Origin: Psammoneis japonica
Taxonomy: Eukaryota
Direction of reading: 5' to 3'
Assembly (NCBI GenBank): GCA_008632985.1
Contig: QPGO01000218.1
Location: 62,001 to 117,546 of the forward strand
Length of the DNA stretch: 55,546 nt
The notes under the pieces are model-generated. The model was not told the origin of the DNA. It searched no databases and saw only the letters and a program-made list of their open reading frames with translations. Positions 27,601 to 55,546 of the stretch are shown piece by piece (within the stretch, counting starts at the first letter, position 1; the number at the start of each line of letters is the position of its first letter). Both the position numbers and the translations under genes were made by a program.

Positions 27601-27662
27601 AAGGAAGAAGTGTCACATGCTTCACCAACGAACAGCATGATGACATTTTGCAGTCCAATTGA
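23865..27662 (+). mobile_element. Decayed Helitron-like RepHel element (DUF6570-like region, HUH Rep, C-terminal Pif1 helicase fragment)
   Basis: Motifs LSPRAR...MANDCCFGTPPPELSCLTEAE, LLQFPCGRGG, FGQPGAFLTTSPDD, EEQGRLSAHGHI (HUH), CRFNLP, degenerate motif 3 QCTIEHTLK, and Pif1 end NATAGHKLQG...AHVMLSRVETRNGL. Termini not identified. Confidence 0.85.
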
Positions 27663-29295: not shown

Positions 29296-29955
29296 ATGCA
29301 TTGGCTACCATACAGTCGTACCTCTCCTTCAGTTTCTCTGATCTTGTTCCTTTTGTTGGAAGGTACAGTGACGTTCAGTGGTAAAAATAGCACTTTCGCA
29401 GCCGCCTATATCTGCAGTGAGAATGACGATTGTCATAATAATGGTACTTGCGTCGGAGATTCCAGCGAAAGGCATTGTGAATGTACAATAGGATACATTG
29501 GACCGCAATGTACGAGATTTTGCCCAAAACCGTGCTTGAATCTTGGGGTGTGTTACGAGGAAGCCCCTCATTCTGAAAGCTTCAAGTGTAGGTGTCGTGC
29601 ATTTTTTAGCGGGGATGAATGTGAAACCCCGTACGTGAATTGCGGCGACGGCAGTCGGTGCTACAATGGTGGCAAATGTAAGAAGGACGACGAAGAAAAT
29701 CGTCACAGTTGCAAGTGTCCGGCATCAGCTAGCGGAAAACGTTGTGAGGTTATGGAGCTAGTTTCTTCCAACAGTAGCAGGCTCGAACTTGGCGCTGTCC
29801 TCAGTATTGTGGTGGTTTGCGGTTTGGCTATCGCTGGAGCGTCTCTTTGGTTAGCAAGGCGGAAACGACGAATGAAATACAAACGCGAGGACATGTTTGA
29901 CGAGAGAGACAGCATAATAGATAGAAGTGCGGTGGATGCGATTGAGCTTACATGA
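29296..29955 (+). CDS. EGF-like repeat single-pass membrane protein
   Basis: Signal-like N-terminus, three EGF-type Cys repeats (CHNNGTC..CECTIGYIGPQC; CLNLGVC..CRCRAFFSGDEC; CYNGGKC..CKCPASASGKRC), a TM helix, then a basic stop-transfer sequence. Confidence 0.88.
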   Translation: MHWLPYSRTSPSVSLILFLLLEGTVTFSGKNSTFAAAYICSENDDCHNNGTCVGDSSERHCECTIGYIGPQCTRFCPKPCLNLGVCYEEAPHSESFKCRCRAFFSGDECETPYVNCGDGSRCYNGGKCKKDDEENRHSCKCPASASGKRCEVMELVSSNSSRLELGAVLSIVVVCGLAIAGASLWLARRKRRMKYKREDMFDERDSIIDRSAVDAIELT

Positions 29956-30030
29956 ACACCAAGCAGGAGTTCCTTGCATGACGCATACAAATATCATTCA
30001 CCACGCTCAAAAACGCCTGACCATTCTAGC

Positions 30031-31572: not shown

Positions 31573-31689
31573 CTTGCTTAGGACTCGCTTCCCTTTGTCA
31601 TTGTCGTGATATGTACCGCATTGAGATATGAGAAAAAAAAAGTACAGTATCAACGCACGTGTCTGGCCGTCGTTTACGTCACGAAAGAC

Positions 31690-33330: not shown

Positions 33331-33455
33331 CCATTAATTTTTTGTCTCGTTCCTGGGGGGCGGAAGGGGTGAGGGGTGCAAAACAAAAAGGAAGAAGCGA
33401 TACTGTAGATAGAGTTACCATAGTTATCGATCAAGCCCCACTGGTGTCACTCGAA

Positions 33456-34772
33456 ATGGCCAAGGGCACCGCTAAGAAACGCCGTCAAGGCGAGACATGG
33501 ACTGGAGCGGATCATGCAACGCGCAAGGCGACCCAACAAGTCAAACGATCGACGGTCATGTCGTACAAGGATCGACGAGAGGCAGTCCTGGCTCGTGGCT
33601 CTCGTGACAAGATTGATGCTGGCAAACTAAGACTGCACATTTCCAAGACACAACGTGAGGTGGATCGTTTGCGAGAAAGACTTAGAGCTTGGGATGACGT
33701 GGAGGAGGAGAAAGAAAGATTGTTTCAGCTTGAAAAAGAGAAAAATCAAATAGCGGAAGAACCGTCAAAGAAAAAGAAGCGTGGACGACTTGGACCGGAA
33801 ACTTGGAAGCTGCGAGGAGCCGCACGTCCCGCGTGGGAAGTTTATGATTTTGACACTCGTTACAAAGACCCACACTTAGTAGAGCATGAAGAACACCAAC
33901 AAAAGTGTGCAAGAAGCAGAAATATACTTGTACTCTATAAGGGAAGACTCGGACAAGAAAATGTTGATGGCTTACCGCAGCCGCAAGGGAGAAAATATTT
34001 GGCGCTCTTGATGCAGCTGGGGATGTTGTGTCTGCAGGCAAAGAAATTCAAGGCTGCTCGGGGGACGTTCTTGGAATGCATGGATTTGGACGGTGCGGAT
34101 TCTCCCATTACCACAGCTCGATGCCAGCTTATGCGAATGTATATGGAAGCAAATCGACCAGACTCGGCACGGCGGTTGTGGGAGCGACTGCCCGACACGG
34201 ACTCTTCTGTGTGGATCCGATATTCCGCAGCACTTGTGGAATTCGTCAGTTGGAAGCTACTACAGGAAGAAGGCAGTACCAAGGAGAGCGCAGAAAAGCT
34301 TCTGGCAATGGCAATTCGTGCCAATGTCTTTTGCGCATATTACATTGCGCACCATGAAACATTCGAACGTGTAATGGAATACACAGAAGAAATCCAGGAC
34401 GCACCGGAAGATACGCTCGAAGAAGCTGTTGAATACTGTTGCAGTGAGCAAATGGGGGCCTGGGTCGGTACCGAAGGTGCGATCGAATGGCTTCGACAGA
34501 TTATCCTTCAGACTCTCAATGACGTGCCAAGTAGTCTGGATGGCATTGGTAGTGCTCTCACCGTTCAGGATTTGGATTGGAATAGTAAGCTAAAGAAAAT
34601 GGAGGATAATTTCGAGGCATCAGCGAAGGCAGCCACCGAGCAAGAAGCATCGAGAGGAACGGAGGACGAGGAGAGCGAGGAGCTAGACTTGTTAATGTAT
34701 ACAGGGATGTTTCGCACTGCAATGGACATGCTTGAAGACGCTGGTGCTTTTGTCGACGATTTGCGGCGGTAG
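33456..34772 (+). CDS. Uncharacterised protein with a basic/coiled-coil N-terminus and a TPR-like helical region
   Basis: Long clean ORF of normal composition starting MAKGTAKKRR. The LMQLGMLCLQAKKFKAARGTFLECMDLD segment looks like TPR helices. Confidence 0.75.
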   Translation: MAKGTAKKRRQGETWTGADHATRKATQQVKRSTVMSYKDRREAVLARGSRDKIDAGKLRLHISKTQREVDRLRERLRAWDDVEEEKERLFQLEKEKNQIAEEPSKKKKRGRLGPETWKLRGAARPAWEVYDFDTRYKDPHLVEHEEHQQKCARSRNILVLYKGRLGQENVDGLPQPQGRKYLALLMQLGMLCLQAKKFKAARGTFLECMDLDGADSPITTARCQLMRMYMEANRPDSARRLWERLPDTDSSVWIRYSAALVEFVSWKLLQEEGSTKESAEKLLAMAIRANVFCAYYIAHHETFERVMEYTEEIQDAPEDTLEEAVEYCCSEQMGAWVGTEGAIEWLRQIILQTLNDVPSSLDGIGSALTVQDLDWNSKLKKMEDNFEASAKAATEQEASRGTEDEESEELDLLMYTGMFRTAMDMLEDAGAFVDDLRR

Positions 34773-34842
34773 GCAGTCGAGATGACGATAGTGAAAAGAA
34801 TAAAAAATAGCATCATGATGATTAGAATCGGAGAACAACGAG

Positions 34843-36873
34843 CTATTGTTTAGACTGTTGTGGTTTCCAAAGTGCAAGGTCAATAAGCTTGTTTGAGAGT
34901 ATGCTCTTCGGATCAAATTCAGCACGGGCGGCATTAAACTGATGCACAGGGTAGCGATTACGCAAAGTGTCTTGCAAGTCCATAAGCGACCACACCGTAC
35001 TGGGTAGTTCCAACTTGGCCCAATGGCTAACAGCGTTCACGGGGTTTCCGACGTCCCGGAGCAAATCACAATACTGACCCTTGAAGCGCCTGGTAATCTC
35101 ACGTCGCTGCTTTTCATCTTCCGACGGCAAGTACATAATGATTCCAACCCACGAATGTAGCCCGTCCGGAGGCCCATGAGCCGGGGACATGTGCGAGGAT
35201 GATGATGACGTCCAGCGCTGCTCAATTGGTGAATGTGCGGGAATTCCCGCATCCTCGATACCAGACAGTAATCTCTCCATAAAGATCATATCATCCCCGT
35301 TGCTTTCAGAAGCCTTCCCTGTAGGAAAGCAAACCTCCCACACCCATTGCTGTTGGCATATGAGTTGAGGTGAAATGTATGTAAGGCAAAGCTGTGCCAC
35401 ACATCAAATCGTTTTTAATGTATTGAAAAAACTTACCTGACCACCGCAGTCAAACTGAAGAAGTTGATCGCTGGGCTTCGTTTGGTATCCTTCACTTCGA
35501 CGCCAAAACTCGGCCTCTGCCATATTGCACCGTTTCACGTGATCAACATTAAGTGGATCAACTGCCAGAAGTGCGTCTCGAAGCTCGCCAAATCCCATTC
35601 CCTGCATGGATTCGTTGGTATATGGTTCTGCTGTTCTAGCGGATAACTTCTGCAGTAAGCTTCTGAGGGGTTCAAAACGACTTTTTTCATCCGACGCTGT
35701 ATTTCTTGGGACTTGCGTGTCAACAGTGTCTTCTGGATCATTCGTTACGACAACAACCGCATCCGCATAAGGCACCCACATATAGCGAACGTGCTTGTGA
35801 GCCTTCAACAGTGAGTTTAGCCGAGCCTTTGCATCCTTTCTCGTCAATACATAGGTATGCTCAACGAGTTGGTGGGCAGGGATGACTTGCATGGTTACTT
35901 CCGCAACGACACCAAGACAGCCCAATCCTACTTTCGCTAGTTGGAAGAGTTCCCCGTCGTCAGCGGTGAGCTCGACCGTCCTCGACCCGGTGTGACCAAT
36001 TTGAGCTTCGTCACATACTCATCGACTGGAGCAATACGTGCGCCAGTTCCATGTGCACCAACCTGGACAAACCCTCCCATTTGCTGTTCTGCAATGCTTG
36101 CAAGGTTTGGAAGAGTAAGGCCGTGAGATCGGAGGGCGTCCACCACCTATATGGTAGCAGTGCTTGACTAAGATTCAATTCTGATTAAGGAAAGACTATG
36201 TAAAGTTCCTGTGGGTACGTACCTGGCTAACACGAGCTCCCGCTTGAACAGTGACAGTCATGTTTTCCTTGTTCACATTGATGATTCTGTCCAAGTTGGA
36301 CAGACAAACCATACCACCGGCTCGAAAACCAATCCCATTGGGGCTTAATGCTGAACCCAATGGCCTGAGAGGTTTCCCTTCTTCATTGCACTTTCTTACA
36401 ATGTTTTCCAATTCCTCAATCGTTTCCGGCTCCCAGTAGTTCTCGTTGGCAACGTGAACCGCATGAGTACCACTCCAATTCAACAACATCGTAGTTTCAT
36501 CTTCCTCGTCTCGTTCGTGTATCTCTTTGCTGTTGCTAGGTGATGTTTCCCCTTCGGTTGACTTCCCGTCACGGATATTGATTGACCCTTCCAGAGCAGT
36601 GTCATATCGCATTGGAAGGAAAGCTGCCGAAGCTGCGAGAAGTCCCGCACCCATCAGTAGATTGCTAAAGTCCATCGTGGAGTGATTATCATGGTTCCCG
36701 CGACAGCTAGATTTTGAAGGTAATGTATGAACAGCAAAGAGTCCTTTGTTACAATTTTGTAGAAGATATTGATTCAGCCTAGGGATTGTATGCTGACCAC
36801 TGCGATACCTTGGCGCGGAAATGCCAGACAAGGGTAGGCCACGCCGCGTTGACAGTCTAACTGATGTTGTCAT
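34843..36873 (-). CDS. GLDH: L-galactono-1,4-lactone dehydrogenase (ascorbate synthesis, mitochondrial)
   Basis: NWSGTH, RPLGSALSPNG, LPNLASIAEQQMGGFVQVGAHGTGA, FDCGGQQWV, IPAHSPIEQRW, SWVGIIMYLP and HWAKLE. Introns at 36147-36222 and 35350-35436. Frameshift near 35979. Confidence 0.94.
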
Positions 36874-37287
36874 CTGAACGCTCTACGCTTTCCTCCTAAG
36901 AATTCCTGTTGAAATCTTTTGAAGAAAAGCTTAAGCACGAGGTTCCCTCACAGTAATGCGTCGTTACTGTTGCTTTTGCAAGTCGAAGGCTTAAAGCTTC
37001 TAGTAGAGAAACGCAACGGAGAGAGGAGAGAGAGCGATGAGGTTGGTACACGCTAGAGATAGAATGGCGTGATGTGTGTGATGTGCGGTGATTTTCTGGA
37101 TTTTTTGCTGATGCGATTTGGATGATGATTCCTTCACTGACGTGATCGCGCGCATCGAGTGTCTTTTTTGCAGCGAGCATGAAGGGTGGTGGGTGCTGTA
37201 CACTGCATGTATTAATAGCGTTGGCTTATTGATTGTGCTGGTGTTGGACCAAAGTGAAAGGGGGTGCCTGGGCTTGAGTTCTCGATT

Positions 37288-38115
37288 ATGAATACGAATG
37301 TAGTTGACGGCGACGCCAGCAAGAACAACCTGCTTCAGACCTTGATAGAGACATGTGACTCCATAACAAAAACAGCACTGTCGTGTCGCACCCTGCTTGG
37401 GAGTCGAAAACAGAATGTTACGAAATTGGAAAACGTCGGATCTGTATATCAGCAGCAGTTGGAGCTCGAACGGTGGCTCGAAGGAAACATTCTGGACTAT
37501 CGTGCGGCTATTGCTCGGCTCTCGGAACACGACGAAGAACAAAGGAGCAGGATGGACAACGGAAGGCGGGGCCAAGGAGACGCTATTCTCCGAGAAAGAA
37601 TCCATCGACTTGAGGACGAGCTGCTTACAGAGTCGTCCTGTCGGCAGGAGAAAATTCTGCTTACAAGGCTGGAAAGGGCCTCAACCGCACAGCAAGCGGT
37701 CAAGTTGCGGCAGAACGATGGATGAAGGAGTCTCCGAGGTTCGTCCTACTAGTAGCGAGTTTTATGATCAAGCGGAAAGCAAGAGGAAGCTTCGCCACGA
37801 GGCGCTAAAAAGCCGCGACGGCCAGGTTAGCACAGCACTGGACAAATTGCGTCGTGTGCATGCGATGAACAAGCAACTAAAATCTCTTGAAGGCACGAGG
37901 CAAGCGCTACAAAAAGGAAGCAGGGAGCTTTGGTATCAAAGATGTCTTCACTTTCCAGAGAAACGATCAGATTATCCAATGACGAGACGGAGGGACAAAT
38001 TGAGAAGGAGAACAAGATGTTAAGACGCGCGTTATCAGATATTATGGTGGGAAGCAGCCTGGATTGGTACTGCGATGAAAGACTAAGGAACACCATGATG
38101 AGACTAGAAGGATGA
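37288..38115 (+). CDS. Coiled-coil protein with a CENP-H/Mcm16-like C-terminus (two apparent frameshifts)
   Basis: Three overlapping coiled-coil ORFs join to about 275 aa, ending LRRALSDIMVGSSLDWYCDERLRNTMMRL, which resembles the CENP-H C-terminal LILGSxxxWxxDxxL motif. Confidence 0.55.
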
Positions 38116-38181
38116 CTATACCCCAAAACTTGTCATACTTCAATCTCTATATAACAAACTCTAAGGGTGTAAAACTCAAGT

Positions 38182-41100
38182 CTATCGTTCCGGTCGTGCG
38201 GAAAAATCTGCCAACTTTAAGTTGCGACATTCGAAAGAATACGAGGAAAACTTCACCGAGATATCTCCGACCAATGGCAAGCGCGGCTTTTCAGGGTTCT
38301 CAAAACAAAGCGGTTTCAGGAGAGCCTTCTGATCTTCTTCGCAAAGGAACTTTACGATCATGCGAACAATCCCGAGACTGGATCCATCACCAAATCTTGA
38401 GCAAACCACTGACAAATCTTGGGAAGCAACACGGAAACACCGAAGCCATTGCTTCGCGTTGAGACTTGAACACTGCCTTGGAGATATGATGCTGACGCTT
38501 GATTCAATTGTTCTTCAAGATATGCAGCCTTGTAGATGGGTACGGAGGCAGGATTACTTCTGGATCCGCAGTTGAGTGCAAAATTTATCCTGTAGTCTGC
38601 TTGAGTGAGGGCGAACCGAAATTGCGACTTGGGAAGGACGAACTTGGATATGAACTGAGACGGGTAGTTCATGGATGCCCTGATAATGTTGTGCTCCAAT
38701 TCTGTCAACGAGAAGATATCGTCTGAGCACTGGTAAGCCACCATGTTGAAATAATTCAACCACTTGAAGGCTGAATCGGGAGTACCCAAGGCAAGGAATG
38801 CGTGCATTATCATGACATGGTAGAGATTTAGGAAGAAGGCCAGCTTTTCTCTTTCGTTCAAAACATTCACGTCGACTTCCTTTAGTCGCGCTGTACTATT
38901 GAGAAATGCCACCAGTTTGTGCGCTTGTGAGTCTACTTTCGGGTCTAACGCTCGTACCAAAGCATCCTCTACCACAGCCGCCGCGCTTAAACCCTTGCAC
39001 GCCGCAGTGAAAGAAAATTTTCGGCAATTCAAAATTCGCCGCTGTTTACAGCTCCACAGAGAGCTCTTGTGAAGGTACTCTTCTGTTGGATCGTCAACAC
39101 TAAAGAGGATATCCGAGTTGACACTTCTTTTCTCTTCCGTTTCTTTTGTAGCTGCCGATTTCCCACGCCGAGCCTTATTATTCGAGTTAGACGACTTGAC
39201 TTTGAGAATTTGCGACATCAGTTGATTTCGTTCAGACTCTCCCGCGAACATAAGATAGATGGTTCGACCTATCGTTTCGATTGCAAGAAAGCTGTACCGC
39301 GGGAAACAAGGGCATTCCTCCGTTGCAAGTCTCGCGACGTTGACAATGCTCTTCAGAGACATGCGAAAGTTTGGTTTGTTCTTTGTGGGTTGATAAAACG
39401 ATAAGTGTCGGTCAGTGAGCTGAACCCATTCTTCAATCCAGTGATGCTCGCTGAGTGCACGGGCACAGTAACCTGAAGCAAGAACCGGTCGCGACGTATT
39501 TGCTGGAGACACCGGCTTTTTTAGAAAAAGCGAATCCATGTCCGTCCTCAACTTCTTGAATCGATTAGCTTCACCAGTCACTCCTAAGGAGTTTTGAATC
39601 GATGAGTCGGCAATCATTTGACCCATGATGCGCCTTCCTCGTTCCAACGATGACATGCGTGGGGAACAGAATGCTCCTACCGCCTTCTTCTCTATGTCTG
39701 CATTAAAAATGTTCTCAAATTGTGATACGGTACGAAAGACAGTCTCTGACCCTTGATGTAAATTGAAAGCATAAGTAGTGATGTACTTGCCCTTGGAGGA
39801 GGAAAAATCTCGACCCATGCAGGACAGAAAAAGTCCAAGTCCACCATTGACAGAGTCTCTGGTGTCGAATCTTTCGCCGTTGTTTGTACCGAGTCAAAGT
39901 AAAACAGTTCATCATCTTCGACACCGAGGCTAGCATCCCCAGCTTCGTTAGTATCAAAGAAACGAGTAAGATCGCTGTCTGACTCTCCTCTGTCCGTGAA
40001 ATCCGCACCGCTCTCTTGCCTGTCGAGAGTCGACAGCTGTCCAAAGGATGTTGCTGATCTTGCCAAAGGCCTAGCCTTGCCCCACGGTAGAATATCCTCT
40101 GTTTCCGATTCCGATTCTTCCCCTTCGTCATGCATGACATGGTGTCCCAGGAACTTCATCTACCGTTATAGAGAACATTGTTGGCCAATAGGTGTAATTG
40201 TTTACAATGCACCAGCCATAGCAAACAACAACACTCACCTGCAAGTCAAATATATATTTGTTCTCGTTTCTAACGTGCCTTTCTTCTTTGGACACGGGTT
40301 TCTCATACATAACAATACTAAGAAAAGAGCTCCCCCAGAACGTTCTAAGGTCAAGGTCCTTTGTGACTGGGAGGTTGACGACACGCCAGTCTGGGATATC
40401 TAGATACATGCTATAAAAAGCGAAGGAATACGTGTCGTTCACGTTCCAATTTCCTTCACTTCTTCCTGCCTTCCTAGCAGCTTTCGAAGACTTTGTCTCC
40501 TGGAATATCTCGTTTATCGGAGGCGGGGTCTCACCCGATTTCGTAACAATGACATCATCAAAGAACTGCCAAGCGGGAAAAACTATTCTCGCAGCTTCAA
40601 CGCCTTTGCTGTCACCGAAGGAATAGTTTAAGTCGCTATTGAAACTTCGAACAAGGTTAAGTAAGACACTGCACATCCTTTGGGGAAAAAAGGAAACAGA
40701 TGATGAGGAGCTCCTGCGAGAATCGATTGGTTGGTAGTCGTGACCAAAGCAATTGACATACCCTTTTCCAACCAAGCCTAGTTTCATTTGATCTGATACT
40801 TCCCCGCCAGCATACACTGTGCCCTTTGGGACGTACTTGAATTTCCCCTGAAGCTGACATATAAGCTAATGAATTGGCCAACCGAGCAAAGAAATGTGCG
40901 TGAGTTTTTCATTAGTGGCAGTACATCATTCTCCTCAGTGCGAGACCTTCAAACTTACGCGTCGTTTTTTCTTTGAAAAGATCTTTTCGTTATAATATGA
41001 ATCATCCGTTGGGTCGGGAGGCCGTAAGACAATCAGCAGCTTTCCAACAAAAAGATCGGTTTCCACGGGAACGCCGACCCTTGAGTTCAGAGGGAAATCC

Positions 41101-41759
41101 ATCTTTTGACCGTCTTTCTGGGTGATCGTCACAGCAAGAGACGGGAACTTCGGCGGAATCGAATCCTCTGTCGTACTCTTTCCTGGCTTAGTGGATCTTC
41201 CGTCGAGAGCAGGGTTAACTGAATCAGTGTCAATGAATGTCTCTATGCCCTTCTTCCCTTCAGTTTCCACAGCCAGGTCTGGATTTGCAAACATGGACGC
41301 TACAGCCAACCTTCCTTCAGCAGTAGCAAGAATGTCGCCTGTAACCAAGAGCAGATCTGCCCCGCCATTCAGACGAATTGCAGCACAGAACAATTCGACA
41401 GATGACAAAGAGAAAGACGAGGCGAATCTCACTAACGAAGCATCTCGACTTTTGCATCTTGCAACGACGTCACGGATGTCGTCATCTTTAACAACCAGCA
41501 TCCCAGAAGGCATAAAGGTTTCAGATACTGTCAATGTATATTCTCGGAAGACGATGAAAAGTATAAGCCCACCAGTAGATTGAAGATCATCAGTTTGTTC
41601 CACTAACACCGCGGCGGATGCATCACTGTCGCGCGATTCAAGAACAAACTTTTCGGGGAAAAGAAACATTATCATTTCCGCATCAGACTGGGGTTGCTTT
41701 GATTCCAGGGTGATCACATTATGTCGAGCCTCAGCAGATTGATTAACCCCCATAGCCAT
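38182..41759 (-). CDS. DUF1769 + PH-like + DUF547 domain protein (spliced, apparent frameshifts)
   Basis: PVETDLFVGKLLIVLRP...FSKKKRR and YSFAFYSMYLDIPDW (DUF1769-like); EKLAFFLNLYHVMIMHA...FSLTELEHNIIR...DYRINFALNCGSRSNP (DUF547-like). Start codon uncertain. Confidence 0.8.
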
Positions 41760-42436
41760 GATAATCAGCAAGAGCTATCGCGTCGACTGTTCAGTAGTAC
41801 CACACACGCGACAAAGAGAGTAGAAGAGTACTTCACTTCCGTAAAATATAAGGAGAGGTGAAGTTACGGTAGTCTCTCTAGAGGTACTCCTTGGGCACAG
41901 TACATACAGATCTCTTTTCGGCGTGCACTCCCAGCTTGGGCTGATCGGCGTGGCGAAACTCTCGTACGGGCGGTATGTACCGTAAATCGCGCAGGTTCCG
42001 GTATGCACTGTACGTACATGCACGACTTACGTCATTTCTTCCCCGTGCCCTCGCCCACGATTGCATACTCGTGACATTTTCTTCATTTCCCTGATTGACT
42101 GAAGATAAATTATTTTATAAGAAATGAAAATAAAATAAGCGCATTTCCGCTACCCAACCACCACCAAATCAAAATCGCCTCGACGTGCACGGAGCGGATC
42201 GGAGCGCCACGTTGAACTTTCCTTCCAACTTCCAACCACCACGTAAATTGAAATCCTTCTGAAAGGTCGCAGCGCAGTTCGCAGTCATCACAACATACAT
42301 ACAACACAGGCCACAACACACATTGCGTTGTGTTGCGAGTCACTTCAATTACATGTGTAAAACCACAGCAGCAGAGACATCTAGCGACAGAAAGGACTTG
42401 TCTGCAAGAATAGGAGCCGCCACGACGAATCCTGGA

Positions 42437-44043: not shown

Positions 44044-46070
44044 AGAAACACTCGTTTCGCTTAGGTTAGGTTTGCAACGAAAATTAGAATTGCATTCCTA
44101 GTTATCTGCATACAGGATGCCTTGATTGATTCTCTCTTCATTCTCTTTTATTTAGATTGGCTAATCAAGTCTGAGGAACTACCAAAAGCTGGGGTAGACA
44201 CCTGTTCCCCTTGTGAGATCGATGCTGTGGGTTTGGTTTTAAGAATCAAATGAGAGCATTTTTAACGCCAGTCGCACCAACAGCTTGACGATCGGTTTTG
44301 TGGACCACCATGACTCTTTTTGCCAACAGGAAAGATGCAAAAAGTTGGCTCTGAACTTGCATCGAGCAATGCAAGAAACTCTCCACTGGCACTGGGGATG
44401 CAGGCACTGATGATGCAAGAGCGGCCCAAGATGCCGCTTCAACTGGCGCTCTAGCTCCAAGCAGCTGGGATTCGACAAAAGGGCAGCCACAACTTTCTGG
44501 CAGTGTCACACTGCAACCAGCCCTCTCTCTCTCTCTAGAAGGACGACTCTGTCTTGAGCCATTTCATGTGTGTTGCAAAGAAAAGGGCACTGGCAGAACA
44601 TTGCACAGTGATGGCTGTGGCTCCACAATTGGCAAGTGACATGTTCACCTCAACCACTGCACTCCCTTTGCTTTGCCTGCATTGCAAAACCACACAGCAG
44701 TTTCAAAACCATGCCTGACATTGAAAACATGTTGGCATCAACTCTTTGAGGTGCATGTTCATTGCCATGCTCTGTCATGGCCAATCACCATCATCTCTCA
44801 TCTCCGCACCACTTTGCCAGAGGTGACATGATTGCGGCAAGAAAAAGGCAGACAAACCTCTGAAGAAAGATTTCATGTCCACCAAACAAAGCAAGTGTCA
44901 CTCTTTTTCTACATCATCCATCATCTGCATGAAGCATCTGCTAACTTGTCATGTGGTGGCCACCAGTGTGGCTGCAAAATGTCATGCTGTGAGAATGGAA
45001 AGACCCACGACCCACCAGTGGAAACTGTGCAGGGCTGCCCAAACTCTGTCATTGCATTGTGGCCATGTGTGAGTCCAAAATGTGGATGGGCAAATGCATC
45101 AAGCCAGTTGTTGCAGCCAAGCAGACAGCAGAGAAAACATTTCCACAACACAGAGAGAAACAATCAAGCAACAAAGCTTTTGATTGTCTCAGTTCTGCAC
45201 AGAACACAAGAAGCAAGTGTTTTTGTGAAAGATCTCAAAGTTTGCTGAGTGCAACAAACATGAACAAAAGAGATGGGCTTGCCAATCTGCTGGCCCCTCA
45301 ATGGGATGCTCTCCTCCTTTTTTGATTGTCAGTGCAGTGCATCATGCACATCTCTGCAATCAAGCAGGGAGCTGACAAATGCTGTTGAGACATGCACAAA
45401 ACATGCCCTCTGACTGAAAAAACAAAATTCTGTTCACAATGGTGGGGGGCTTGGTGCCACACAAACAGGCTGCTGCTTTTTGCAAGGTCAACAAGAGTGC
45501 AACATAAAATCATTGCCATGCTTGGTGCAAGGGACAAGAGCTCATGCTTCCCTTCCTTGTGGTGTGCTTGCAAGTGCTTTTTAAATGCACAACTTTGTCT
45601 GTTCAGTGCAAAGCTGTCAAACCGGCAAGTCAATGTTGCAAAAGGAGGGAGAGCCCCGTTGGTCAGTCACAACAATGGCTGTGGGTTGCCAGTGGTGTTG
45701 CTGCACACTGTGATTTGTGTGACAACAGGTGCCTGCCAATGCTGAGTGACAAATCATGCAAACCCAATGATTTGCTCCAAAGAGTGAGATGAAACTGAAA
45801 GGTGAGAGATTGCTGACAGTGAAACCTCACTCATGAAGAGTTGCAAAATGAGCTGCATCATTGGCCACTGCATTTTTTCTTCAACACATCCAGGTTCTTT
45901 ACATTTCCCACAACCTGGATGCTGTTCCAACAAAAGCATCAAGAAAATTGCATGCACTGCACAAAGCAGCAGAAATTTCACTTGCGTGCTGCAGAAGCAG
46001 TGCACACAGCTGCAAGAAGCCCCCCAGTTGTTGGAGTTTTGCAGCTTGCCAGCCAGTGTGCATTTAGTGT

Positions 46071-47808
46071 TGCCAATCCTGAGCTTGCTGTGTGGCTTGC
46101 AAACACATTTCCTCTGTGCCATCATCTGCTTTTGCCATGTCAACCAGGTGCAGAAGCCAAAAGGTCAAAGGGAGCGCAAGACCCACAACTCAACCCAAGT
46201 TGAGAACACAAATCCACCATGTTGTTCACAATCATCAGCACATCTTACACTGCAATGTTGACTGTCCATCCTGCAAAAACTGCCTTTCACCACAATGTCC
46301 CAACACACTCCTTTGCACAAGTCATCAATTGGTTGGCCTCAGGAGGCACATCAAAAAGCATGATGGGAGGACGACACTTGGAAACCATGCCATTTAAACT
46401 CTGCCAACAAATGACCACCATTGCTGTTGAGCAAAGCACAACCCCATTTCACATGCCCAACCTTGCAACATTTCCATGGTTTAATCTGCTTTTTCTCATT
46501 CTGCACAAAGCTTGCACTCTCAGGGTTTTTGTTGAAACCACAAGTGTCCAACACATGCAATGCCACCTTGGCAACATTGGAGCAATTGCCACCCCCAGTG
46601 CAACCTGCTGATGTGTGTCTTTCAAGACATGCCAACATTCCTTCTTGGTGCCTTCTGTTGGTGTTGCAACCAACAACTTGTCCTTTTCTTTGTCATGGGT
46701 GTTGTGAGCATCCTTGCCAAACCCATCTTCTTTGTTGGCAATTTCTTCTGGGACAATCATCATGCCACAGGATGCTTTTGCCATCTCAACAGTGCCAGCA
46801 AACCAACCACAATGACATTGAAGCACCTCTCCTTCATCTTGATGAATGTGTGCTGACTGCTTTCAAGCCTTGACTGCCTGAACATGTGAGCACATCTTCT
46901 TCTCATTTGCATCAAACAAAGTTGACTTGACAATTTCCAACAGCACCACCACACCCCCCCACTCTTTCACCACTCTTGCACACTCTGTTGCTGCTCCTTC
47001 AATCTTGTGACAAAGGCCTTTGCACAGTGTCCCACAATTGCGTTGAATGCCCTTGCCTTCTGTGTCTTGTAGAATGTGATCTGTTCACACATGGTGATCA
47101 CATTGCTTGCCCCAGATTGTCTTGTCCTTCTTCAATGTGGCATCTCCCAATGAACACTCTGGCTCTTTTGTGGCATGCTCTCCTGCCTCAGTGATGCCAG
47201 CACCTGCATCTCCAGCCCAAACATTCTTCCAACACACTTGCTGATCTTCTTGACGGTTTCTGTGCAACCATCTGCCTGTGAACCCAACTCAGCAATGGCA
47301 TCATGCACCCACTCCTTTGAATCTTTTGTGCTTCTGCATCTGGCGCAGTCCTTGAGATTGTTTCTTTGCCCTTGTCCACCAGCTGGCTTGTTTGTTGCCA
47401 CAATCTGCCACATGAGACATGCCTTTGGATTCTTGATGACTTCCCAGCCCCCATGCTCTTGTTCCTGATGACTTCTCAGCCTTTTCCTTTGACCCACACT
47501 GCTCCTTTGAGTGTCATGCTGTGACTTTTTAGCTTCTGTGTTGGAGTTTCACAGCTTGCCGACTGGCACATGTTTGGTCTTGCCAACCCCAAACTCACTG
47601 TGTGGCTTGCAAACACAACCCCAATGCTTGTCATCTGCTGTTGCCATGTCAGCCAGTGCAGAAGCTAAAAAGTGAGCAGAAGACCTGCAACTCAACCCCA
47701 AGTCATGAATGCAAATCTGCCACAAAGTCCACAGTCATCAGTGCATCATGCACTGCAACATTGTTTGTCTGTCTTGCAAAAACTGCCTCTCACCAAAATG
47801 TTCCAACA
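46071..47808. repeat. Diverged ~230-bp direct repeats (46071-46305 and 47581-47808)
   Basis: Shared blocks ctgtgtggcttgcaaacaca, ttgccatgtca, gtgcagaagc, caactcaaccc and tgcaaaaactgcct.tcacca.aatgt.ccaaca. Confidence 0.85.
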
Positions 47809-48979
47809 GCACCTCTTGAGCCACAGCAACCTCAATCTTTTCTTTCACCAACTGCACATTGCATGCAGATGAGTCAAGAGTGAGTTTTTGCTTGCAGTTT
47901 GTTCCCTTTCTCATTGCCACACCCGCATGGCTTCTTTGGCACTGCAGTGGTGATGACTTGTGTGGCTGCCACTGGTGGCTCCACTGCACTGTCTGGTGCT
48001 TCAGCATTGGTCACTGCCCCAAGAACTCCTCCTCTTTTCAGAGCAGCTCAGCTGTGTAGACTCCTGTCTACCTTTTCTCTAGTTCCTTTTTTCTGGAGAA
48101 GGGCTGGCTCTGGCCATCTCAGAGGACTCCCACCCCCATTTGGTTGGCACAACTCTCAAAGCAGCAGGGCAGTCTCAGCTCTGATCTTGCCTCTGATGAC
48201 ACTGCCATGGCAGCTGGATTGTCTGCAATGGCAAGCAGTCTGGCAAATGCCACTGCAGCACTTTTCACATGCATCCTTGTTGCTGACAATGGTGTTCAGC
48301 TCTCCCCTGTGGCCCATCTGAGTGCTGTGCTGCTCAAGCAAAGCTCATCAGTGGCAAGGCAATTCTGTTGGCTTGGGTGCACACCTCACCTTCCTCTGTT
48401 GTGGCAGCCACTTGGCCTGACTCTGTCATTGTGGCAGCCTCTGGTCCAAGTGTTGCAGCCACCAGTGCCACCCATGTTGTCTTGCCAAAGTTGTGGAGTG
48501 CAACATGCCCATGCTGAATGCTGGCTCTGGGACATGCTGTGCCTCCATCATCTGCCTCTCCTTGTTGTCTGCCAGCCATGTCATTCATGCATGACTCATG
48601 TCATTCTTTCAGTTCTCTAAAACTGTCAGACTCTTTCAGCCATGCCTTTGTTGTGTGTGCTTTGACAAGACCCAAGCCCTTTCTTGGCTGGCGGTTCACA
48701 GCAGCACCCCAGCAGCAGACATCAGCTGCCTTTTGGCTTTGTTTGCAGGCTCTGTCTTTGGCAGTCATGTGGTCCTTGCCCAGAGCACTGTGAGAGTGAC
48801 TTGCCAGTTCCATCCCAACCTTTTGGAGGCCCAGGCAGGTGCAAAGATCCAGTGCACTCTCTCTCAAATGAGGCCTGAGTGTGCCAACTGTTTGATGTGC
48901 AGCTTCATCAAATCAGTGATGCAGAGCACTGCAGCCATGCCAGCATCACATCACACCAATCAGACCCCACCTGCATTGC

Positions 48980-51850
48980 GCAAGTGAAAAAAATGGATTG
49001 GTGCTCTCATGACCAATCTTTTGTTGGCTTCACACCCAGAAAAAGCAATTGCTCTGCAGAATTCTGTGGCAATTTGGTGCTGAGCTTAGCCAAGACTTTT
49101 CTGTCTCCCCAACAGCAATCCCCAACCTCACATTCATGACTGCAGCATTGGTGCAACAAAGTGAATTGGAAGAAAGAACTCCTGTTGTTGTCTCTGTTGA
49201 AAGAGGCCCGCGACAATGCTCCAAGTGCTTTCAGCAACAAAAAATGTGGAGTCAACCTTTGCCACTTTCCAACAGGTTCAAGAAGTGCCAAGACTGTGAA
49301 ACTTCATTGTTGGAGACCAGTTTGTTGTTGGGCCAAGTGTGGGTGACTTTCAGAGACTGCCTCATGAAAAAAAGCTGAAACCATTTTGCTCTAAAAAATG
49401 ACTGCCTCAACCAAAAGCAAAGTTTGTTGAGGTGGAGTCTGGCTCACATGTGGTTGAGCACAGTGGCAACAAAGAGTCACTGCAAGGTGTGCTGAAAGAG
49501 GTGCCCCCCCCCCCAGCTGCAAAAAAGTGTGCATGGAAAAGATTCTATGTTTTGTGAGTTGCGTGGCATCTGTGCAGCACAAAGATCATCAATGGCAAGA
49601 TGTTGAGCAGTGGGAACATGACAACACACACAAACATCAGTCTTTCTTATCTCACTCTTTTCTTGTGGGGAGAAACAGGTGATGGCCTCATGTGAAAGGG
49701 GGGAAGGACCAAAAATTGCTGAGGGTGGGGTTGAAAACAGCTGCCAAAAATTGTTTCAGAAAGTGTTTTGAAAGGTGCTCATTCTTGCCATGTCTGCCGT
49801 GCATTGACAACAGTTTTGTGCCAAAGGGATGAAGTGCCGCTTCTGAATGGAAGCTCCACAACCAGTCAATTGGCAACAACTGCACATGTGCTTGCAGGCT
49901 CTGTCACTTGCAACCTTGTTTTGCTGGATCAAGATGAGTCCAAGTGCTGCAAGTGCTGGATTGTCAGCTTGGCCAACATTGCCATCAAAGCTTTCAGAGC
50001 ACATGGGGGGCTGGTTCTTCATCAGATGCAAGAATTGCACTTGGGATGATTGCCATGTGTTGCTGGAAGCAACAGCCAGAATTGTTTGGACTTGAAGAAG
50101 AACCTGCCATCTGCACACCAGTCAAGAAGCTGTTTGGGTTGAATGAACAACCCAGGCCTTGATGATGGCAAAAAAGCAGTGCTGCCATTGGCAATCTTGG
50201 CAAAAAACCAAAGAATGACTCAATGGAGGGCAAAGCTTTTTGAAGTGGAGCCCAACTCATGTGCAGTTGAGCACAACAATGACAAAGAGGAGCCACTGCA
50301 AGGATGACTTAAAGTGGTGCTCCCAGTTGCAAAAAAGGTGAGCAAAGAAAATTCCGCACAGCTCCAAGCTGAGAAGGAGTCTTGTCCAGAGCTGCTTGGC
50401 ATCTGCACAAAGAGTTTCCATTTGCACTGTGCAAGCAAAACAGCAAAGTGTGCAAGGCTGGACACAATTGTCTGCTGTCCACACCAGACTCTTTGGTGAG
50501 GTCTGCATGTGCACCCTTGCCCACTGTCTTTTGTGCGCGCACCATTGTTCTTGATCATTTTGTTGAACCCCGCCATGACCAACATGAGAAAGTGCCACTT
50601 GATCTTGTTTTGCACTCTTTCCCTGTTGTGTGCAATGGATGATGGCTGCAGAAGAGACAGACTAAATCACCAAAGGCAAGATTGAAGACACCACAAAATT
50701 GTCTCAAAAGCATTGGAAGGTGCCCATTCTTGCTGCAGGGCACAAAAAAAAGTTTCTGGGAGAGAAACACCACAAAGAAGGGAGAAGCCACTTTTCTGAC
50801 AATTTTGCAGTTGCTTGGTCTGGTGAAGCAAGATGCTTTGCATTGCAACATGCCGTTGACAGCACTGCCAAAGCAACCAGCAATGGGCACAATGTGTGTG
50901 CTGCAAATGTGCACCAACAGCCTCCACACACCCAAGAGCAGCATTTCAATGTGAAGGTGTGGCAACAGATCTGTCATTTTTGTCACAAGAGTCTCTTGAA
51001 CTTGCCCTTGGAATGCTCCAAAGAAGCAAAAACTGCTGGCTGTCCGGAGCAACTCATTGTCAAATTTGTCAAAAGCACGCTTTGCTCCAGTGTGCAACTT
51101 TGCACATGAAGGGTCGTGTGTGTGCAATGCAAAACTCCATTTTTTTGTCTTTTGGTGTGCAGGGGGGTTCATTGATGGTGGCACTGTGCCACAAAACACA
51201 AAAAGTTGCACATTTTAGAGAAAAAGTTGCAGCACTGTGTTGTCAAGCAACTCAACTGGCTGCATGGCATTTTTCATGCTTTGCAATTTCCCCTCTGAGA
51301 AAAGAACTTCAACTTTGATGATGTGACATGCCAGATGTGCACAAAAAGCTGCAAAATGTTTCAGAGATCTGAGCTGGAAAGCACCCCCAACTGACTTGAT
51401 GCTTGTTTGCACTTCTCATTTTTGCCAATCACCAGCTGCAAGAAGGTGTTGCTCAAAACAGTCTGCTGGGCATGGCAGCACATCATGGGCAGGGGCAGGG
51501 CATTCTTCCACCAGCTCAACGTGCCAGTGTTCAACTCCCCACAATGCGTTGCTGGTGACTCTGCAGAAGTTGAAAAGTCTGGCATCCTTTGAGAATTTTT
51601 CTCAATGCTTTGAGCTGTCAGCCCCAAGCACAGATGATGATGCACCATGGACAACTGCAAAAAATGTTTTTGTTGTTCTCCAGGGCACAACGTGGAGAAG
51701 AACACCAAGCATGAGCTGCTCTGGGGGAGAACTTAGATTTCCTGTTGCACATCAGATTGATGAAAAATCCATGGCGCAAACCTCAGCAGCCAATGACTTC
51801 TCATCGAGGTTGCAGTTGCCACCCTAAAACCACCACTTGTGCTGGTCTTC
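48980..51850 (-). mobile_element. Possible decayed Plavaka-like DNA transposase remnant
   Basis: Scattered minus-strand fragments (CGELNTG, FDKFDNELLRTASSFCFFGAF, VWRLLVHI, FGDLVCLFCSH, ESFDGNVGQ...LIQQNKVASD) recall the motif order of Plavaka-type transposases. Heavily degenerate, recognised by eye only. Confidence 0.35.
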
Positions 51851-52699
51851 AAAAGCTCCCACACAGCTTGGCTTGAGCATGTGCAGTGCACGGCAAAGGA
51901 GGGAGGCTGCAATCATGAGTTGCTTGCCAAAGAGGAGGATGCAATCAAACACTGTTTCTTCCAGCACTTTTTGTTTTTGGTCCTGTGAGCTTGAGTGGCT
52001 TGTGCATGTCAAGCACAAAAACAGGACAGATGGACAAGTGGCAGATTGGGCTGTTTTTTTTTTTGCTGCGTGCGCAACATTTGGTGAAGTCAACCTCACT
52101 TGGCAAAGTTGACAGTCATCTCTTGATGACATTTGACATCATTGATGACTCTGCTGTGATGATCCTCATTGCCTCTCAATGAATTCAGCAGGGCTGTCTG
52201 CAGCATGCATTGTCAAGCAGGAAGAAGCACACATGTTTTCACAACTGCACATTGTTGCGTGCATCAGTTGCACTGCAATCATGGGTGCATGCAAAGGACA
52301 GACAAATCACACAGATTTGATCAGATGTCAAAAACTGCAAATGTCATCAATCAATGATGTTGACACACAATTTGTCAGTGCTTGTTGCACTGCAATCAGA
52401 TTTTCTGAATGGCCTTTGGAGCAAATGGCACACTTTGGGCCGTTGAGAGCTCCTTCAGAGAAATCCAAAATTGCAGCACAAAAAATCCAATCTCATGATT
52501 TTCTGCTTTTTGTGATTTGCTCCACTTTCATTTGCACTCATTCTTCAAGCATGGTGCATTGTGTGCATGCACCACAGAAGGCAAGTGCACAAAATTGAAG
52601 CTTTCACCCAATGCGACTGATGCCAAGTCTTCTGTCAAGTGAGGGACAGTTGCTCTGGTGCCCCTGAAAATGATTTCCAAGCCAAAGTTGCTCAAATGA

Positions 52700-55546
52700 A
52701 GCCAGTGCCTCAAGATGGAGCAATCTTTTTATCCTGAAGACAAGAAGAGTTGCACCCACACAATCAATGTCAAGAACTGCAACCAGCGGGGAGTCTGCTC
52801 CAAGTGTGTCAAATTCTTGAAGACTTGCCATTGATGCTTGGTTGGCCAGAACATGCAAAAGCAAGCCAACAAGTTCCATCTGATGCAATCAATGAAAAAC
52901 AGCAAGTTTCCAAGTGCATCAAATTCTTGAAGACTTGCTGTCAACTTTTGGATGGACAAAATGTGCAGAAGCAAGCCAACAAGTTCCATCTGATGCACAT
53001 GTTGTTGCAGGAGATGCTCTCCAAGTTTTTGAGAACAAGGCTGCAAAAACACATTTGCTTCAAAGAGGCAAAGACGCCTTTGAAAAATGCCTGTGTTTCC
53101 TTTCCAACCATGTTTCCCCCAAAGAGTGCACTTCAAAATCAGAAACGGCATCTGTGGCATGATCTCAAGAAGCCATCAGAGACCATGAAGATCTGCAAAG
53201 CTGCCACTTGGACTCAGGAAGGAATGAACAAATGTCTCAAGTTCCACCCTCTTTTTGTGCCAAAGCAGAATCTAGAGGACAAAGATGAGCTTGAGAACAT
53301 TGTCTGCAACCTTGCACCTCATTGATGGTGCTGTCAGTCAAGCTCACAAGGTCTGGAAGTTCACATTTGACTGGACTAATGTCAAATCTGATCACAACAG
53401 CAAGGCTGGGTTAAAGTCAAAGATGGGCTCAATTGCAGCTCCAAAAATGGTTGCCAATCTGGTGCCGAACATTCTGATTCCAAGATGTGGTTCAATCATT
53501 GCACATGGGCCACTCATGACATGGATCAATGTTGGGTTGATGGAAGACTGGCAAACTGATGCTGAGAGAACTTTGAACAAAACCCAAAACAGCAATGTTC
53601 AAATGGCAATTGCAGGTGGTCTTGCATTGTGACACTGAAAATGCCTTTCCAAAGGAAGAGTTGAATGCCATGATCACTCAGCCAGTCAACAAAACCCTCA
53701 AGACAAGTTCCTTGACATGTGACAAAAAGCACAAGGGCAGACATTCTGACTGTGATGCACTTGGCAAAGAAAACTTCCAATTTGAGTGCAAATGATGCAC
53801 AGTTGTTTTGAAAAATGACCAGCTTCTGTTGAGGAGTCTTGCACATGACTGGATGTCAGCAAGCCCAGAAAAGGCCAAAGCAACTCACACAGGTCCAGCA
53901 GTCATTGCTCACATGAACCCCTCTTTGAGAAAAGAGAGGGGTGAGACTCTGCATGTTCTTCTTGATGGTGAAACATCATCAACTGCAATTTTGTGCAAAT
54001 TCACGTGGAAATTGAGAACCAAAGAATCTGCCACCAAGACTTGGAAAACCAAGGGTGGACTCTTTGCAACTGACAGCAAATGCAAAATGCAGTTCTTGTC
54101 ACCTGAATTTGACAAGCACAAGCCCATTGACAAGACAACACATGCTCATGGCATGCCCTCTTCTTCGTGTTGATGTGATGTGATCATGGGACACAACCTG
54201 ATGAGCAGTCTTGGAGTCACACTCAGCTCCACAAATGTGATTAGAAGATGCTGTTGTGCCAACAAAGAATGTTGGCACTTTCTTTGATGCTGATGTCTTC
54301 AAGCTGATTGCCAACCACATTGAAGAGTCTGGTGCTGTGAATGGTCTCAATGGCAAGACCAATGGCACCAGGATCCTTGATGCCAACTGTCATGCTGGCA
54401 ACCTCATTGATGTGGCTGACAGCCACAGAGTCACATCTCACCCCAGGAGAACAGAAGCAACTGAACTCTCTTTTAAAAAGATTTGAAAAGCTTTTTGACA
54501 GTTCCTCAGGTGTGTGGAAAGGAAAACCAGCAGATCTCATGTTGAAATTGGGCATGACTCCACATGATTTGGAGCCATTTCCCACACCACAAGCCTTGGA
54601 GGCAACTGCTTGAAAGGAAGCAGGCAGACTCTGTGAAGCAGGAGTCTCAAAGAAAAAAAATGGACCACTCTGAATGGGCAGCTCCAACCTTTGTTCAACC
54701 CAGGAAAAATGATCAAGTTCGGTTCCCACCCAACTTTTAAAGAGCTGAGAGGGAGGCTGATGTGCACTCCACACCCTTTGCCCAATGTTTGGGATGCACT
54801 GCAGAAACTTGAAGGTTTCATGCATGTGACCTCATTTGATTTGACCACGAGATGCTGTCACATCAAGCTGACATGGGGTGCATGTGTCATTTGTGCATGA
54901 TGGTGATGCTGCAGGGCAAATGTGAATGTTGCAGACTCCTTGTGAGAATTTCCCCCCATCATTTTTTGAGAACACATGGGCAAACTCATGGCAGGTTTAG
55001 AGTTTGTCAAAACTTGCTGTGTTGATGTCATGCTGTGCCTGACAAAAAGTGACTTCAAAGATCAACTCCAGAAACTTGAGGAGACATTCACATGGCTCAA
55101 ACAAGCCAGTTTGAAGGTCAGTTCCAAGAAGTCCTTTTCAGCTGAGCATGATGCAGACTGTCCAGGCTTTCATGTCACCCAAAATGGTGTTGCACCACCC
55201 CCCATGAAAGTGGGGGCAATTCAAGCAACTGCAACTCCCAAAACTCACAAGGAGCTGCAATGTTTTGTTTGTGTGGTCAATTGTTGTCAAGACATGTGGC
55301 CTCAACAATCTCATGCACTTGCTCTCCTCTTGCCAAACTCACCCAAACAAAGGTTGAGTGGCAATGGATGAGCACGGAACAAAAAGCTTTCAAAAATGTG
55401 AAGAGTTGTGTCAAAGGACGTGTCATCATCACACCCAAATTTTGACAAACTCTTTGAGCAGTGTGCCAAAGGAAAAAAATTCTAAACTGGGAGCAGTCAC
55501 ATCACAAAACAATCAACCTGTTGCTTTCCACCGCTGCAGGTTAAAT
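52700..55546 (+). mobile_element. Decayed Ty3/Gypsy LTR retrotransposon (gag-protease-RT-start of RNase H), running off the window end
   Basis: gag-like FPPKSALQNQKRHL..LKKP; protease LHVLLDGETSS...WKTKGGLFAT...PEF; RT SEWAAPTF, PHPLPNVWDALQKLEGFMHVTSFDLTTRCCHIKL and LMAGLEFVKTCCVDV; RNase H start LGAVTSQNNQPVAF. Confidence 0.88.
52801..52997 (+). repeat. 110-bp-period tandem duplication in the gag region
   Basis: caagtg..tcaaattcttgaagacttgc...aagcaagccaacaagttccatctgatgca occurs at 52801 and 52911. Confidence 0.9.

Follow-up and report, generated by a model that had tools for sequence, protein, structure and literature searches.

Context-dependent loss of TpA from mobile-element DNA of a diatom points to targeted hypermutation

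The window analyzed here, a 55.5-kb stretch of eukaryotic nuclear DNA from a diatom (Psammoneis japonica, contig QPGO01000218.1; 55,546 nucleotides, whose numbering is used throughout), carries ordinary genes together with blocks in which the dinucleotide TpA (TA) is severely depleted. In the main block, which occupies the last 11 kb of the window, TA has been converted to TG or CA after the DNA was already in the genome, the few surviving sites share a restricted sequence context, and the affected DNA consists of degraded mobile elements. We favour, with some reserve, an explanation in which silenced mobile DNA of the diatom is hypermutated in place by a targeted process, to which the ordinary decay of methylated CpG is added. 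Both the depletion of TA and the context bias of the survivors were confirmed. The TA pattern had already been described in an initial annotation of this DNA, whose interpretation is partly supported by the present results; the loss of CpG (CG), the gain of CA and TG, the effect of the second base downstream of TA, the other blocks and the transposon nature of the DNA had been missed.

The main block contained 39 TA, against ~800 expected from its base composition (observed/expected ratio, o/e, 0.05) and ~424 when the expectation was scaled from the density in the neighbouring genes, so that the initial count of a few dozen sites in ~11 kb, where several hundred are expected, was correct. The TA o/e was 0.50 in the gene-rich remainder of the window and 0.45-0.66 in the genes between the blocks, which lacked any deficit of TAY (Y, pyrimidine; R, purine). 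In addition, only 61 CG sites were left in the main block (o/e 0.10, i.e., 90% lost), and CA and TG were enriched (o/e 1.75 and 1.97); in the mass balance, ~385 missing TA and 597 missing CG stand against a surplus of ~1030 CA plus TG. Among the NA dinucleotides TA alone was lost, CA and GA not being lowered by the process, and AA was not depleted (o/e 1.30 vs 1.17 in the genes), as had been noted at the outset as an argument against a general WA motif (W, A or T) of DNA polymerase eta (Pol eta). The GC fraction was not lowered (0.468 vs 0.484), and small shifts in GC, AT and TC were due to the changes GTA→GCA, ATA→ACA and TCG→TTG. The block has a sharp left edge, with dense TA up to 44195 and only 4 TA in the 400 bp that follow. 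The same signature was found in three more stretches (1-~450, ~23400-28188 and ~31750-33300), and the depleted regions of the window are as follows.

44220-55546: main hypermutated block, 11,327 bp, defined by dinucleotide counts and continuing past the end of the window.
44220-44550: left-edge part of the main block, TA scarce (4), CG still at normal density (10).
23041-28188, plus strand: Helitron-like insertion (Pfam DUF6570 and Helitron_like_N; homologues found).
23041-23400, plus strand: first ~350 bp of this insertion, undepleted, with 26 TA and 30 CG.
31750-33300: third depleted block, flanked by two genes; RTAY accounts for 0 of its 14 surviving TA.
1-450: fourth depleted stretch, at the start of the window, with 3 TA and 4 CG in 400 bp.

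We then classified the surviving sites by their neighbours, the gene DNA of the window serving as a surrogate for the ancestral transposon composition in all expected counts. The survivors of the main block were 29 YTAR, 7 YTAY, 3 RTAR and no RTAY, where 81.2, 94.7, 119.5 and 128.7, respectively, were expected from the gene TA density. Survival was thus not uniform across the four classes, falling from 0.36 for YTAR to 0.07 (YTAY), 0.025 (RTAR) and 0 (RTAY), and in Fisher tests against the genes both the excess of YTAR over the rest (p=3.7e-13) and the lack of RTAY (p=1.2e-6) were significant. As stated initially, most survivors were YTAR and none was RTAY, and the YTAR sites cited as examples are real within one base (46395, 47666, 48618, 50663, 51216, 53273 and 54474). 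In the Helitron the survival was 0.10 for RTAY, 0.35 for YTAY, 0.52 for RTAR and 0.84 for YTAR. When unmutated relatives of the Helitron were used as an alternative baseline, the ranking of the NTAN contexts was unchanged.

Written as a change of A to G, this rule fits a favoured strand that reads 5′-TAY-3′. In a two-strand Poisson model the rate k(+1), according to the base that follows TA, was 2.8 for T, 2.6 for C, 0.7 for G and 0.3 for A in the main block, and this order was repeated in the Helitron and in L002, a metagenomic Helitron described below. The addition of the +2 base improved the kinetic fit (2ΔLL, twice the gain in log-likelihood, 61 and 38-40, with 12 degrees of freedom). Survival peaked at TAAA and TAGA (main block, 0.51 and 0.33; Helitron, ~1) and was 0.03-0.11 in the remaining TARB contexts (B, not A); by triplet, it was 0.15 for TAG vs 0.02 for TAC and TAT. 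Hence YTAR does survive best, but the initial description of YTAR as spared is better worded as sites at which both strands read TAR, and best of all TARA. The rates of the 16 (+1,+2) combinations agreed between the main block and the Helitron (Spearman 0.88-0.91) and, to a lesser degree, between the elements of the window and L002 (0.61-0.70), so that the context dependence held within the window and recurred in an unrelated metagenomic contig.

The direction of the change was read from protein alignments, the ancestral residue being taken from columns in which at least 60-70% of the homologues share a residue. The tyrosine (Tyr) columns were as follows.

Helitron open reading frame (ORF) of the window: 8 conserved Tyr columns, now 1 Tyr, 4 Cys, 1 His and 2 Phe.
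Reverse transcriptase fragment 54970-55368: 4 conserved Tyr columns, now 4 Cys.
Reverse transcriptase fragment 54637-54897: 3 conserved Tyr columns, now 2 Cys and 1 His.

In all, 12 of the 15 conserved Tyr columns are now Cys (10) or His (2), and the Helitron ORF has retained its other conserved residues (Arg 16/17, Trp 6/6, Pro 12/12, His 10/11). In its Rep domain two tyrosines four residues apart have become Cys and His; we take them, following the work on Helraiser, to be the catalytic pair. Since a change of TAY codons to TGY or CAY is a change of TA to TG or CA, these results indicated that TA was destroyed in this DNA, and not absent from the start. The Tyr codons also bear on the strand that is changed. 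In a YTAY Tyr codon the coding strand alone reads TAY, so that the rule predicts Cys and never His, and all 12 such codons had become TGY (7/7 in the window and 5/5 in L002) and none CAY, a result obtained without guessing ancestors and one that bears out the initial proposal that the change falls on the strand reading TAY. The RTAY Tyr codons, in which both strands are favourable, gave TG five times and CA four times. When asymmetric sites were polarized by assuming an ancestral TA, 8 of 10 fitted the TAY rule; the differences cited initially between tandem copies were confirmed (GTAA/GCAA at 23979, 24217 and 32861; CTAT/CTGT at 24242). Over both strands, RTGY and RCAY numbered 336 vs 306 in the main block and 112 vs 148 in the Helitron (p=0.03), and no convincing strand bias relative to the coding direction was seen in either.

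The timing of the change was addressed with repeats inside the blocks.

46029-46305 and 47539-47808, plus strand: dispersed repeat pair, 75% identical, 52 mismatches, 11 adjacent CA/TG doubles.
52799-52997, plus strand: 110-bp tandem repeat, 83% identical, 15 mismatches, 4 CA/TG doubles.
23858-24632, plus strand: 385-bp tandem duplication inside the Helitron, 92% identical, 31 mismatches (28 transitions), 9 CA/TG doubles.
32730-33265: 180-bp tandem repeat in three copies, inside the third depleted block.

Five comparisons between repeat copies gave 114 mismatched positions, 90 of them transitions, and 69 sat in YR steps with differences of the CA/TG type. There were 25 adjacent double differences, i.e., CA in one copy and TG in the other; such a double marks a site at which the copies have resolved an ancestral TA (or CG) separately. 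Adjacent tandem copies resolved the ancestral site differently, and therefore the mutation followed the duplication and took place in the genome. A further comparison was made with assembled Logan contigs of one sample (runs X1 and X2), for the window stretch 22000-41999. Among 21 sites listed for the window Helitron and other X1 contigs, 7 were CA/TG doubles and 6 read CA in the window and TA elsewhere.

The loss of TA ran ahead of the loss of CG everywhere, which suggests two processes rather than one. In the Helitron, TA stood at 0.18-0.19 and CG at 0.6-0.7; the main block had 4 TA vs 10 CG in its initial 330 bp; and in L002 the values were 0.02 and 0.29, the CG of its undepleted relatives being already 0.4-0.8. 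A companion change of the G:C→A:T type was heavy in the main block, with its 90% loss of CG, and the TA loss of the Helitron, of 44220-44550 and of L002 was largely unaccompanied. Nowhere in the window was CG loss seen without TA loss. On the simplest reading, the loss of CG would be the slow deamination of 5-methylcytosine in silenced domains that are methylated at CpG, a modification described for the long terminal repeat (LTR) elements of diatoms in the text of PMC2806351. An apparent TCG-strand preference in the reverse transcriptase fragment, where 4 of 6 Arg had become Gln, was rejected because the other possible product, TGA, is left out whenever an ORF is chosen for lacking stops.

The main block and the three smaller blocks are a graveyard of degraded mobile elements. 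With Pfam, no credible family was found at E<=0.1 among 84 stop-to-stop ORFs of at least 70 aa in the main block. The reverse transcriptase emerged only when the 133-aa ORF at 54970-55368 was compared with the whole library by phmmer, which gave 815 proteins at E<=1e-3 (best 7e-21), the long matches being Ty3/gypsy polyproteins with protease, RVT_1, RNase H (RT_RNaseH) and integrase (rve), and the ORF upstream (54637-54897) aligned to the N-terminal half of the same reverse transcriptase.

54637-55368, plus strand: degraded reverse transcriptase of the Ty3/gypsy type, in two frames (54637-54897 and 54970-55368).

The 11.3 kb of this block also carry 57 stop-to-stop ORFs of at least 90 aa, distributed over all six frames. 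Such long spurious ORFs exist because the TAA and TAG stops have been erased, and gene finders will predict spurious genes in blocks of this kind.

The Helitron is depleted from ~23400 on (TA o/e 0.18-0.19), with CG partly reduced (0.6-0.7). In run X1 a single contig, whose depth is that of unique sequence, fuses position 23040 to position 28189. One allele or strain therefore lacks the 5148-bp Helitron-like insertion, which is polymorphic and presumably recent, and yet already depleted of TA. On the 20-kb stretch compared there were 798 X1 contig pieces, many of which fall on the Helitron, and the summed word depth, not to be read as a copy number, reached 395-2319 between 22.7 and 28.7 kb vs 52-72 elsewhere; piece count and depth are a sign, and only a sign, of a multi-copy Helitron family. 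The undepleted 23041-23400 is rich in the fastest contexts (GTAC, ATAC, GTAT; many RTAY), and past ~23400 TA drops to zero per 100 bp. In the frame that follows the Rep ORF (27341-27660, plus strand), the C-terminal end of a PIF1-type helicase can be recognized by eye (‘...GHKLQGSGVD...HVMLSR...’). Little helicase sequence precedes it, and the element may be internally deleted.

The contigs of run X2 (window 22253-41971) skip segments of 76-115 nt with CT..AC ends, i.e., GT..AG introns of minus-strand genes. Run X2 therefore probably represents the transcriptome of this sample, in spite of its label ‘DNA?’. Its cover was zero over 23.3-28.0 kb and 32.0-33.3 kb, which does not count as evidence for silence.

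An independent case was found in metagenomic data. A scan of metagenomes with the single Helitron ORF gave 103 pattern matches, none of which was confirmed. When the Helitron alignment was used instead on metagenome contigs, 22 loci were obtained, most of them with ordinary TA (o/e 0.5-0.8). One of these, L002, had 8 TA in 6671 bp (o/e 0.02), with no RTAY, and a CG o/e of 0.29. In its protein 236 of 265 conserved positions are retained, but all 10 conserved Tyr have been replaced (7 Cys, 2 His, 1 Phe), whereas the undepleted relatives seen in full (L001, L003, L005, L008 and L010) have kept 9-10 of the 10, L007 8 of 10 and the partly covered L013 5 of 8. The erasure of TA with the rest nearly intact argues for a fast and specific mechanism and not for slow drift. 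Three loci of intermediate TA (L003, L014 and L015, 0.32-0.38) were rejected as hypermutated, their context mix being normal and their Tyr retained. At the DNA level, none of the 22 loci was closely related to L002 or to the window Helitron.

Relatives poor in Tyr and rich in Cys were also found among public proteins: 8 of 150 matches to the reverse transcriptase, a sample biased by the Tyr-less query, and the Helitron proteins P0126, P0115 and P0128. These and other transposon ‘proteins’ (P0162, P0273 and more) contain 0-1% Tyr and 4-5% Cys, and one of 866 aa has no Tyr at all. Such database entries probably stem from similarly hypermutated elements in other organisms.

The ordinary genes of the window are listed here.

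PRP8 (four ORFs), enoyl-CoA hydratase/3-hydroxyacyl-CoA dehydrogenase, SART-1 and Pex16.
Cap-guanine methyltransferase, a DUF547 protein and Hsp70.

A 708-aa PRP8 ORF shares 91-94% identity with proteins that carry diatom labels (Attheya, Pseudo-nitzschia and the MMETSP entry ‘Dacty...’), and at most 83% with those of oomycetes, Aureococcus, Tribonema and other ochrophytes. For a second, less conserved protein of the window the best named relatives are also diatoms, and the source was accordingly treated as a diatom to which no sequenced species is closely related. The 5′ part of the PRP8 gene (10850-11014) contains GGA-rich tandem repeats with periods of 18, 30 and 36, which probably encode a Gly/Pro-rich N-terminal extension.

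We propose that two processes act on the depleted blocks. The fast one would convert TpA to TpG or CpA in place, on the chromosomal DNA of the blocks. Written as A→G, it would hit the strand that reads 5′-TAY-3′, work much more slowly on TAR and slowest on TARA, so that TA persists where both strands read TAR(A). It would act about equally on both strands, halt within tens of bases at the edges and spare the adjoining genes. Codons for Tyr would fall to it, those of the pair presumed to be catalytic in the Helitron nuclease among them, and so would the stops TAA and TAG. The slow process would convert CpG to TpG or CpA in the same blocks, most simply through deamination of 5-methylcytosine. 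As to the cause of the TA process, the most likely candidate would be an adenine deaminase that acts on DNA and is guided to silenced chromatin, by which A becomes inosine, read as G. The data show the signature, the direction of the change, the context rule, its timing after duplication and its restriction to mobile DNA; from this pattern we infer an enzymatic targeting, the deamination of adenine, a link to chromatin or methylation and a role in defence. A bolder version, which we advance tentatively and regard as possible rather than probable, is that diatoms possess an adenine-based counterpart of repeat-induced point mutation (RIP), namely a chromatin- or RNA-guided enzyme that deaminates adenine in the double-stranded DNA of silenced mobile elements, at TAY and on both strands. 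Such a system would be old and widespread among stramenopiles, alveolates and rhizarians (SAR), because the same signature is active today in a rhizarian alga. The enzyme would be a natural DNA adenine deaminase, which to our knowledge has so far not been known in any organism.

Several observations weigh against the proposal of a TAY-directed adenine deaminase acting beside methyl-CpG decay. Two of the 10 asymmetric sites were not predicted by the rule (ATAA→ATGA in the 180-bp repeat, and TTAT→TCAC), and three YTAR sites, which are unpolarized, have CA in the window where another copy has TA. The expected counts depend on surrogate baselines. The first ~350 bp of an apparently multi-copy Helitron are unmutated, which a simple rule of the ‘whole repeat’ or ‘whole element’ kind does not explain and which may indicate that a chromatin domain or transcripts guide the process. 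Furthermore, TCG was lost in the main block about twice as thoroughly as the other NCG on both strands (0.05 vs 0.10-0.13 for ACG, CCG and GCG, p=9e-4), a bias that is not expected from the spontaneous decay of 5-methylcytosine; in the younger Helitron there was no such bias. Finally, A→G on one strand is indistinguishable from T→C on the other, so that the pattern does not separate adenine deamination from a thymine-directed route.

In that thymine-directed route, which we consider unlikely, an oxidase of the TET/JBP type or another modifier would mark the T of RTA, e.g., as 5-hydroxymethyluracil, which would then mispair with G and lead to T→C. 5-Hydroxymethyluracil is enriched at TpA in dinoflagellate DNA, and the data are symmetric, in that each ‘A to G in TAY’ is a ‘T to C in RTA’, but to remove 95% of the sites a modified T would have to miscode at a high rate. 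Rather less probable still is a single deaminase of dual specificity with a preference for a 5′ T, acting on C in TCG and on A in TAY, so that both losses would be one process. It would explain why the two losses are confined to the same blocks and why TCG is the most depleted NCG of the main block, and enzymes of the ADAT2 type reported to deaminate A and C in DNA are cited in the preprint on the chlorarachniophyte Bigelowiella natans (10.64898/2026.01.13.699255). The two losses are out of step, however: TA has been lost far more extensively than CG in the Helitron and in 44220-44550, L002 stands at TA 0.02 vs CG 0.29 with relatives already at CG 0.4-0.8, the Helitron has no TCG bias, and 230 of 231 de novo mutations in B. 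natans were A:T→G:C.

The change could have been made before insertion, on a transposition intermediate, either on RNA that was then reverse-transcribed (as by ADAR) or on single-stranded cDNA or rolling-circle DNA (as by APOBEC3). This is the classical route of retroelement hypermutation, and the edges of the depletion match those of the elements. We nevertheless find it very unlikely. A DNA element, the Helitron, and non-coding tandem repeats are affected, the 25 CA/TG doubles between adjacent copies place the mutations after duplication in the genome, the strands are hit equally where a one-strand intermediate yields one product, and the 5′ 350 bp of an inserted element are untouched. ADAR favours the triplet TAG, with G as the 3′ neighbour, and a duplex of RNA, but TAG is among the slow contexts here; with a DNA transposon affected and tandem repeats changed after duplication, the pattern does not resemble editing of the ADAR type. 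Error-prone patch repair, of the kind seen in antibody hypermutation, would account for the loss of CG and of TA in the same blocks: G:T mismatches left by methyl-CpG deamination would bring in mismatch repair, and a polymerase akin to Pol eta would then introduce mutations at WA motifs close by. Pol eta makes many transversions, but the differences between copies are mostly transitions (90/114), and AA is intact (o/e 1.30 vs 1.17 in the genes), so that the changes do not look like Pol eta mutagenesis at WA; TA loss precedes CG loss, and in B. natans the TA changes come without CG changes, according to the main text of the preprint. Patch repair is thus highly improbable. We give hardly any credence to the view that hypermutation is absent and that low UpA and CpG evolved under selection, as in many RNA viruses and mRNAs. 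The joint suppression of CpG and UpA is known from cytoplasmic RNAs and RNA viruses (discussed in PMC3829696), but here conserved residues were destroyed (12 of 15 Tyr columns, the presumed catalytic pair included), non-coding repeats are affected too, copies show independent CA/TG outcomes, a depletion to 0.02-0.05 far exceeds known selective suppression, and close relatives of the same Helitron family are undepleted.

If targeted TpA-directed hypermutation is confirmed, it would be a mode of genome defence in diatoms and not a curiosity of one chlorarachniophyte. Diatoms are major phytoplankton with genetically tractable species, so that the enzyme could be found by knock-out, and the order TAY > TAR > TARA offers a test for candidate enzymes and separates targets from noise in genome scans. 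An adenine-based system like RIP would, if real, erase every Tyr codon and two of the three stops within a short evolutionary time, and a natural enzyme that changes A:T to G:C in DNA would be of interest for base editing. As to annotation, the real genes of such blocks escape Pfam, and Tyr-free ‘proteins’ are already present in public databases.

The initial annotation had compared the process with bacterial TadA. TadA and ADAT2-ADAT3 act on RNA loops, the context of TadA being UACG. These enzymes, and the A-to-I editing of fungal mRNAs, share with the present process a target A that is preceded by U or T, and the analogy stands only for the 5′ T. The UACG context is not mirrored here, since TAT was lost at least as thoroughly as TAC, there was no preference for G at +2, and TACG did not go faster than TACC or TACT in the Helitron (survival 0.15 vs 0.12 and 0.10). 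The decay of methyl-CpG resembles the present case in that CpG→TpG/CpA is confined to transposon blocks, and diatom LTR elements are reported as methylated (PMC2806351), but it accounts only for the CG half of the signature. APOBEC3 is likewise a deaminase-type hypermutation that defends against mobile DNA and leaves a context signature, but, as described in PMC4866542, it edits C to U in a replication intermediate, and there on a single strand, whereas here A:T pairs are changed on both strands and after integration.

RIP of the ascomycetes, with its TCG-type variant in basidiomycetes (as presented in PMC3318451), is also an in-place, dinucleotide-specific transition hypermutation that disables mobile DNA and has sharp edges. 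RIP changes C to T and creates TpA, whereas here A:T→G:C destroys TpA, and the unmutated part of an apparently multi-copy element speaks against a simple repeat rule. As an explanation of the diatom blocks RIP was rejected, TpA being nearly eliminated and the GC fraction not lowered.

The only matching report that we found, in diatoms or elsewhere, is the preprint on B. natans (Mettrop et al., bioRxiv 2026; 10.64898/2026.01.13.699255); the words hypermutation, dinucleotide and TpA were absent from the main text of the diatom transposon literature checked. According to the main text of the preprint, 230 of 231 mutations in mutation-accumulation lines were A→G or T→C at TpA, at ~6e-7 per site per generation and in some lines only, and the targets were an integrated giant-virus region and a virophage region; predicted genes poor in TpA were enriched in reverse-transcriptase and transposase domains, and an ADAT2-like adenine deaminase was proposed. 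The words CpG, flanking, context and trinucleotide are absent from that main text. In both algae TpA undergoes transitions to TpG or CpA, TpA depletion goes with a gain of CpA and TpG in clustered windows, foreign or selfish DNA is affected and the genes between the blocks are not depleted, an adenine deaminase being the suspect there. B. natans is a chlorarachniophyte (Rhizaria) and the present host a diatom (Stramenopila); the viral inserts there are mildly depleted (rho 0.45), as far as the preprint's main text goes, and the transposons here have near zero TA; de novo rates were measured there, and here the TAY/+2 rule and the loss of CpG are documented. The diatom case belongs with the B. 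natans kind of hypermutation, but in another lineage, with transposons as its targets, at saturation and with a reproducible extended motif.

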